Below, piece by piece: positions 49,423-49,559 of a stretch of 64,000 nt of DNA; within the stretch, counting starts at the first letter, position 1, and the number at the start of each line of letters is the position of its first letter. The notes under the pieces were generated by a model. That model saw only the letters and a program-made list of their open reading frames with translations, made no database searches and was not told the origin of the DNA. Source of the DNA: Escherichia coli (lineage in GTDB: Bacteria; Pseudomonadota; Gammaproteobacteria; Enterobacterales; Enterobacteriaceae); the NCBI RefSeq assembly GCF_003991155.1, contig NZ_CP031293.1. One strand, given 5' to 3'. The translations under genes and the position numbers were made by a program.

Positions 49423-49509
49423 ATGACTCACATCGTTCGCTTTATCGGTCTACTACTACTAAACGCATCTTCTTTGCGCGGTAGACGAGTGAGCGGCATT
49501 CAGCATTAA
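49423..49509 (+). CDS. leuL: leu operon leader peptide (4 consecutive Leu codons)
   Basis: 28-codon [31 protein letters not shown] with a run of four CUA Leu codons. Confidence 0.9.
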
Positions 49510-49530
49510 GCCAGCACGCAGTCAAACAAA

Positions 49531-49559
49531 AAACCCGCGCCATTGCGCGGGTTTTTTTA
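49531..49559 (+). terminator. leu attenuator (rho-independent terminator)
   Basis: aaaacccgcgc-cattg-cgcgggttttttt immediately after leuL. Confidence 0.9.

Follow-up and report, generated by a model that had tools for sequence, protein, structure and literature searches.

The leu attenuator of Salmonella enterica, studied in the Calvo laboratory, is the experimentally dissected model for leaders of this kind, and a 1991 study by Bartkus reportedly varied the number of its control codons. As summarized in PMC1183508, Carter et al. (1986) found that the sensitivity of the Salmonella attenuator is set by rare CUA codons ("three" in that summary) and that leu expression is altered when CTA is replaced by CTG or when the leuL start codon is removed. 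The leu sensor is a rare codon, CUA, whereas that of thr is a major codon (PMC1183508). The trp, his, phe and thr leaders share the same logic, i.e. a short open reading frame rich in cognate codons, a set of protector, antiterminator and terminator structures, and a coupling pause site (PMC1183508, PMC9291695), but they respond to other amino acids and have no sequence homology to leu. For leuL, a pause with a half-life of approximately 28 s, lengthened 1.7-fold by NusA, has been described, and its context is given in a supplement together with a hairpin of -4.2 kcal/mol, AAACGCATCTTCTTTGCGCG (PMC9291695).

The locus described here lies in a 64,000-nucleotide stretch of Escherichia coli DNA, the whole of which is referred to as the window. 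E. coli K-12 leuL (b0075) has the same peptide, the same four CTA codons and the same pause context, protector, antiterminator and terminator sequences, and likewise lies 5' of leuABCD and divergent from leuO. We consider the locus of the window to be a classical ribosome-mediated transcription attenuator of leuLABCD (probability approximately 0.97). It is an element already known, the textbook leuL attenuator, with nothing unusual in this copy. Its features are collected in Table 1.

Table 1. Coordinates of the leu leader, its predicted RNA structures and other annotated features of the window.
Feature	Coordinates	Strand	Description and basis
Probable leuLABCD promoter	49360-49388	+	-35 TTGACA at 49360-49365, perfect; 17-base spacer; weak -10 TAACTC at 49383-49388
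leuL Shine-Dalgarno GGAG	49411-49414	+	8 bases 5' of ATG; sequence
leuL leader peptide ORF	49423-49509	+	ATG 49423, TAA 49507-49509; 28 codons; translation
Control codons CTA x4, Leu10-Leu13	49450-49461	+	codons 10-13 of leuL
Predicted protector helices, ribosome-free leader	49433-49442 with 49487-49496; 49448-49454 with 49480-49486	+	MFE and centroid; sequester antiterminator 5' strand
Small pause hairpin	49464-49478	+	CGCA/UGCG, 7-base loop; seen in every fold
Putative RNA polymerase pause site	U49490/G49491, G-10 at 49481	+	match to published pause context
Predicted antiterminator ("preemptor")	49476-49540	+	GCGCGG 49476-49481 with CCGCGC 49535-49540; inner hairpin 49484-49497 with 49510-49523
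Intrinsic terminator (attenuator)	49528-49558	+	13-bp stem, CAUU loop, 7-T run 49552-49558
leuA	49602-51173	+	first structural gene under attenuator control; ORF list and RefSeq annotation of near-identical genome
leuB, leuC, leuD	after leuA, to 54283	+	ORF list and RefSeq annotation
SgrS	54317-54543	-	Rfam above threshold; sgrS/sgrT position confirmed by annotation
TPP riboswitch upstream of thiB	57309-57408	+	Rfam above threshold; position confirmed by annotation
tp2	10235-10348	+	Rfam match above threshold
naRNA4	21622-21698	-	Rfam match above threshold
STnc40	22102-22171	-	Rfam match above threshold
"fruR/shl operon leader peptide" ORF	45186-45272	-	annotation of near-identical genome; downstream of ilvN, upstream of cra
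YabR, 14 residues	47621-47665	+	annotation of near-identical genome; between ilvI and leuO

Identity of the leader and its control codons

The Rfam family RF00512 (Leu_leader; gathering score 50 bits) matched positions 49409-49558 with 147.5 bits (E = 1.6e-32) over the full model (positions 1-148 of 148). In E. coli RefSeq genomes, these bases bear the annotation "leuL: leu operon leader peptide", with leuA to leuD after them. The protein is WP_001300467.1 in identical records, and the LeuL peptide of the window is identical to that of K-12. The near-identical genome E. coli MRY15-131 differed by two mismatches from window positions 40001-64000 and by none from 27001-40000. The window runs in the opposite orientation to K-12, in the order ilvI, leuO, leuL-leuABCD, sgrS/sgrT, sgrR. 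Between 49340 and 49640, it differs from K-12 MG1655 at five bases, two of which fall within the leader transcript: 49402, with T for C, and 49500, with T for C (Ile26, ATC to ATT, synonymous). A further one, 49579 (A for T), lies downstream of the terminator. An overlapping longer reading frame of 63 amino acids (49318-49509) was rejected as a real product, as RefSeq and Rfam both put the leader peptide at 49423; the ATG of this longer frame is located 5' of the -35 hexamer.

The original prediction had been of an intact classical leu attenuator, with four consecutive rare CUA codons in the leader peptide and a strong GC hairpin with a T-run within 49423-49559, and our data bear it out on each count and to the exact nucleotide; the locus can serve as a positive control for recognizing regulatory elements from sequence letters. 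The full-length Rfam match far above the gathering score and the leuABCD genes downstream agree with its classical character, and its intact state is supported by the presence of four CTA codons, a run of seven T and the pause context as published. CTA is indeed the rarest leucine codon in the window (64 of 1835, or 3.5%, as compared to 56% for CTG; sample of 42 window ORFs of at least 250 codons). Given this codon usage, the probability that four leucine codons are all CTA is approximately 1.5e-6. The 12-mer of four CTA codons occurs only once in the 64 kb, where 0.05 occurrences would be expected even with one mismatch allowed. The hairpin, described below, has 13 bp and ends in the T-run; position 49559, with which the predicted element ended, is the A just past this run.

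The leuLABCD promoter probably uses the TTGACA listed in Table 1, and its hexamers are invariant among seven E. coli strains. From the hexamer spacing and from the length of the leu leader, which we take to be approximately 160 nt, we infer a transcription start near A49396, approximately 27 bases 5' of leuL. A consensus promoter scan of the window did not call this promoter because its -10 hexamer is poor. At the other end of the leader, the terminator, with its T-run ending at 49558, lies 44 bases 5' of the leuA ATG at 49602.

Window positions 49442-49491 match exactly the published 50-base pause context of E. coli leuL. If the published 50-mer ends at the +1 base, -1/+1 correspond to 49490/49491, and the consensus G-10/Y-1/G+1 reads G49481/U49490/G49491. 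The pause site in this leader is a putative one, placed by sequence identity.

Terminator, antiterminator and the position of the ribosome

The terminator consists of a 5' arm, AAAAAACCCGCGC (49528-49540), and a 3' arm, GCGCGGGUUUUUU (49545-49557), which form seven G-C pairs (49534-49540 with 49545-49551) and six A-U pairs. The hairpin has a folding energy of -20.2 kcal/mol (z = -5.65), which none of 200 shuffles equalled. It was absent from the list of a simple terminator scan, likely because the maximal stem pairs the T-run with the upstream A-run, so that the rule of T residues after the stem fails; we regard this as a limit of the scan and not as evidence against the hairpin. The attenuator hairpin has six A on its 5' side and seven T on its 3' side; read on the minus strand, it is again a hairpin with a T-run, and it may thus terminate transcription in both directions. 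On the minus strand, no gene converging on this site is evident.

When the leader (49397-49558) was folded as plain RNA, MFE and centroid structures both contained protector and terminator (-55.7 kcal/mol, z = -5.27). This fold pairs 49409-49428 with 49502-49521 and comprises both protector helices, the small hairpin at 49464-49478 and the terminator, i.e. the topology of the Rfam consensus structure, which also includes the terminator hairpin. In the alignment of seven sequences from four genera, the protector helices were paired in 91-100% of cells, with one compensatory pair.

Of the seven G/C bases in the terminator 5' arm, six are engaged by the predicted antiterminator, whose own 5' strand is a direct repeat, UUGCGCGG, of the terminator 3' arm, which is the build expected of a competitor. 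As suggested with the original prediction, we looked for alternative terminator and antiterminator structures by folding 49400-49600. Plain folding of this segment gave the terminated form only. Even in equilibrium folds of the complete leader in which the ribosome was masked, the terminator formed with P = 0.995 at any ribosome position. In whole-leader folds of the nascent transcript with the ribosome masked, upstream pairing of the 5' arm had a probability of 0.13-0.25 when no ribosome was present, and this rose to 0.34-0.67 for a ribosome placed on a Leu codon; for one at the stop codon, the value was 0.20-0.40, which leaves the arm mostly free. The antiterminator itself was present for stalls at Leu10 and Leu13, while at Leu11 and Leu12 the 5' arm paired otherwise. 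As the terminator always wins at equilibrium, which is to be expected of a kinetic switch, the switch here would have to be of this type. The complete-leader equilibrium folds, being uninformative on the switch, were replaced by folds of the nascent transcript, both the masked ones above and a set limited to the RNA that a ribosome stalled with its A site on a Leu codon leaves exposed on its 3' side, up to, and without, the terminator 3' arm. Under these conditions, the antiterminator was the MFE structure (-19.9 kcal/mol) for all four stall positions, Leu10 to Leu13. With a ribosome at the stop codon, the footprint (approximately 49492-49517) covers the inner hairpin and falls between both antiterminator strands. 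The alternative form thus appears only in models that include the ribosome and the order in which the RNA is made.

In these models, mutually exclusive leader structures exist and follow the ribosome position in the textbook manner, so that the absence of such structures, which had been named as the outcome speaking against the original prediction, is not what we found; the plain folding proposed as the check did not, by itself, reveal them. A naive MFE test ("no alternative hairpins") would wrongly reject a genuine attenuator. The support from the single sequence for the antiterminator is modest: when the available upstream RNA was shuffled 2000 times with dinucleotides preserved, 109 shuffles (5.5%) did at least as well as its 6-bp duplex (-11.8 kcal/mol), and z was -1.70 for the antiterminated fold.

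Conservation between genera and variation within E. coli

We compared the leaders of E. albertii, E. whittamii, another Escherichia, S. enterica subsp. arizonae, Citrobacter and Klebsiella pneumoniae. They were collected by a peptide-anchored degenerate pattern scan of genome contigs (six species, all close relatives), with the Klebsiella leader taken from plasmid BLAST. The four CTA codons are invariant in Escherichia, Salmonella, Citrobacter and Klebsiella, the GGAG of leuL is unchanged in every aligned genus, and both antiterminator strands, the G-C core of the terminator and the T-run are invariant across the four genera. As these core helices never vary, covariation is uninformative and speaks neither for nor against pairing. 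One to two compensatory pairs were found in flanking helices, a number reached by 63-66 of 500 shuffles. Folded independently, the Klebsiella and Citrobacter leaders gave the same closing helix of the antiterminator, and the S. arizonae fold had shifted pairing partners.

Identity is concentrated in the functional blocks (control codons, AACGCAU segment, UUGCGCGGUAG segment and terminator) as compared to the rest of the leader, with 55/58 versus 68/105 identical bases for Klebsiella, 57/58 versus 77/105 for Citrobacter and 57/58 versus 85/105 for Salmonella; the block edges were drawn after viewing the alignment, and p-values for this comparison are indicative only. In S. enterica subsp. arizonae, the RNA is identical in the four CTA codons, the AACGCAT...TGCGCGGTAG segment and the terminator stem, and differs in the terminator loop (CGUU instead of CAUU) and by one A fewer 5' of the stem. 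The Salmonella LeuL peptide (MSHIVRFTGLLLLNAFSVRGRRVGGIQH) differs from that of the window at 5 of 28 residues, and Klebsiella LeuL (MIRTARITSLLLLNACHLRGRLLGDVQR) has only 13 of 28 residues in common with it, which are those coded by constrained RNA. The peptide thus diverges except at RNA-constrained residues, which argues for selection on codons and RNA and not on the peptide.

Within E. coli, the leuL region was found once each in 5399 of 5426 complete genomes; the 27 genomes without a leuL match may be laboratory strains with ara-leu deletions. Positions 49423-49499 were identical in 5013 of 5399 genomes and 49501-49578 in 4244 of 5398, while window positions 40001-64000 were at least 99% identical in 97 of 5424. 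The commonest variant, present in approximately 1150 genomes, lacks one A of the run that precedes the stem. Three variants of the functional elements were each seen in one genome: a first control codon changed from CTA to CTG in STEC711 (L004 351-353), five CTA codons in STEC299, from a marmot (L013 178-192; 207-base query), and a 5-T instead of a 7-T run in PK8276 (L016), which may be a homopolymer sequencing error. These alleles are natural counterparts of experimental control-codon variation. As judged from these alignments, the window has the canonical majority form of every attenuator element.

Several "plasmid" records carrying leuL are 0.4-5 Mb long and are probably mislabelled chromosomes or chromosome fragments. 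The pLeu plasmids of Buchnera aphidicola (H154-H182) matched the leuA coding part only (query bases 216-304), and leader similarity was undetectable by BLAST of the plasmid collection in these leucine plasmids, which suggests that the amplified leu genes on Buchnera pLeu are without this attenuator.

Mechanism, rival readings and genomic setting

According to the literature on this class of leader, RNA polymerase would pause at approximately 49490 behind the small hairpin until a ribosome starts leuL. If charged leucyl-tRNA is scarce, the ribosome would stall on the CUA codons (49450-49461), and its footprint would melt the protector helices and free GCGCGG (49476-49481). The latter would capture CCGCGC (49535-49540) once this is transcribed, so that no terminator forms in time and transcription reads through into leuA. 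With ample leucine, the ribosome would reach the stop codon between the antiterminator strands and cover the inner hairpin, leaving the 5' arm free to form the 13-bp hairpin, which together with the U-run would terminate transcription at approximately 49558. Without a ribosome, the protector would hold GCGCGG, and termination would result as well. The leucine response, the pausing and the kinetic competition are expected in this leader from established knowledge; all three are carried over from the near-identical K-12 and the related Salmonella leaders, as cited in PMC1183508 and PMC9291695.

The bases particular to this lineage (49402 T, 49500 T and 49579 A) raise the question whether a canonical-looking leader might be functionally altered, with its set-point shifted or its switch broken, and the haplotype is indeed a minority in E. 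coli (183 of 5399 genomes at least 99% identical over 49300-49620). However, the variant bases are all unpaired in both predicted conformations, the only change in the ORF is synonymous, and 49579 is downstream of the terminator. At 49500, most E. coli genomes have C, like K-12, and T is the rarer allele; as T also occurs in E. albertii, S. enterica arizonae and Citrobacter, it is probably ancestral and was kept by this lineage. Functional alteration is therefore extremely improbable. An insulating role of the hairpin, as a constitutive or bidirectional terminator between the divergent leuO-leuL region and leuA next to an incidental small ORF, would fit its A-run and T-run flanks, with possible termination on both strands, and its invariable formation at equilibrium. 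A constitutive terminator between promoter and leuA would, however, silence an essential biosynthetic operon. Moreover, the full-length Rfam match is not confined to the hairpin but also spans the ORF region, and a chance run of four CTA codons is hard to reconcile with its low probability and its invariance across genera in an otherwise diverged peptide. We attach a practically negligible probability to this reading.

A function in trans of the terminated leader RNA (approximately 160 nt) or of the LeuL peptide, in addition to attenuation, has a precedent in the rnTrpL RNA and peTrpL peptide of the Sinorhizobium trp attenuator, as presented in abstract-level accounts of PMC6614838 and PMC7298713. 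The terminated leader would be suited to such a role, as it is stable and highly structured (see the folding energy above) and ends in a terminator hairpin with a U-tail. No target is indicated by the present data, though, and the conserved RNA blocks are all accounted for by the cis mechanism. The divergence of the peptide between E. coli and Klebsiella, with conservation confined to RNA-constrained segments, speaks against a peptide acting in trans, though it leaves the case of an RNA doing so untouched. A role in trans is thus very unlikely, and it is similarly unlikely that the abundant terminated leuL RNA acts as a small regulatory RNA that reports leucine sufficiency, in parallel to rnTrpL. 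Ribosome-mediated attenuation in cis remains the reading that we prefer.

The surroundings of the operon differ from K-12 in several respects. The sugar exporter gene setA, which K-12 has between sgrS/sgrT and leuD, is absent here, and 33 bases alone (54284-54316) lie between the leuD stop codon and the SgrS 3' end. Between sgrR and the thiB TPP riboswitch, the minus strand carries a gene annotated in MRY15-131 as T3SS effector EspY2 (56499-57068), where K-12 has sroA and the TPP riboswitch only. The stretch between yabI and araC (61679-63223, minus strand) holds two hypothetical genes and an IS630 transposase fragment with a frameshift; K-12 lacks all three and has yabI immediately after araC. 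A full-length Rfam PssrA match (27818-27908, minus strand, 102 bits) is chromosomal and located at the 3' end of ftsA and the 5' untranslated region of ftsZ, a locus for which the name "Plasmid-encoded Shigella sRNA A" is misleading.

For annotation, the value of these data is that leucine biosynthesis in this strain can be assigned standard attenuation control, and that the leu region of the window is ordinary E. coli chromosome.
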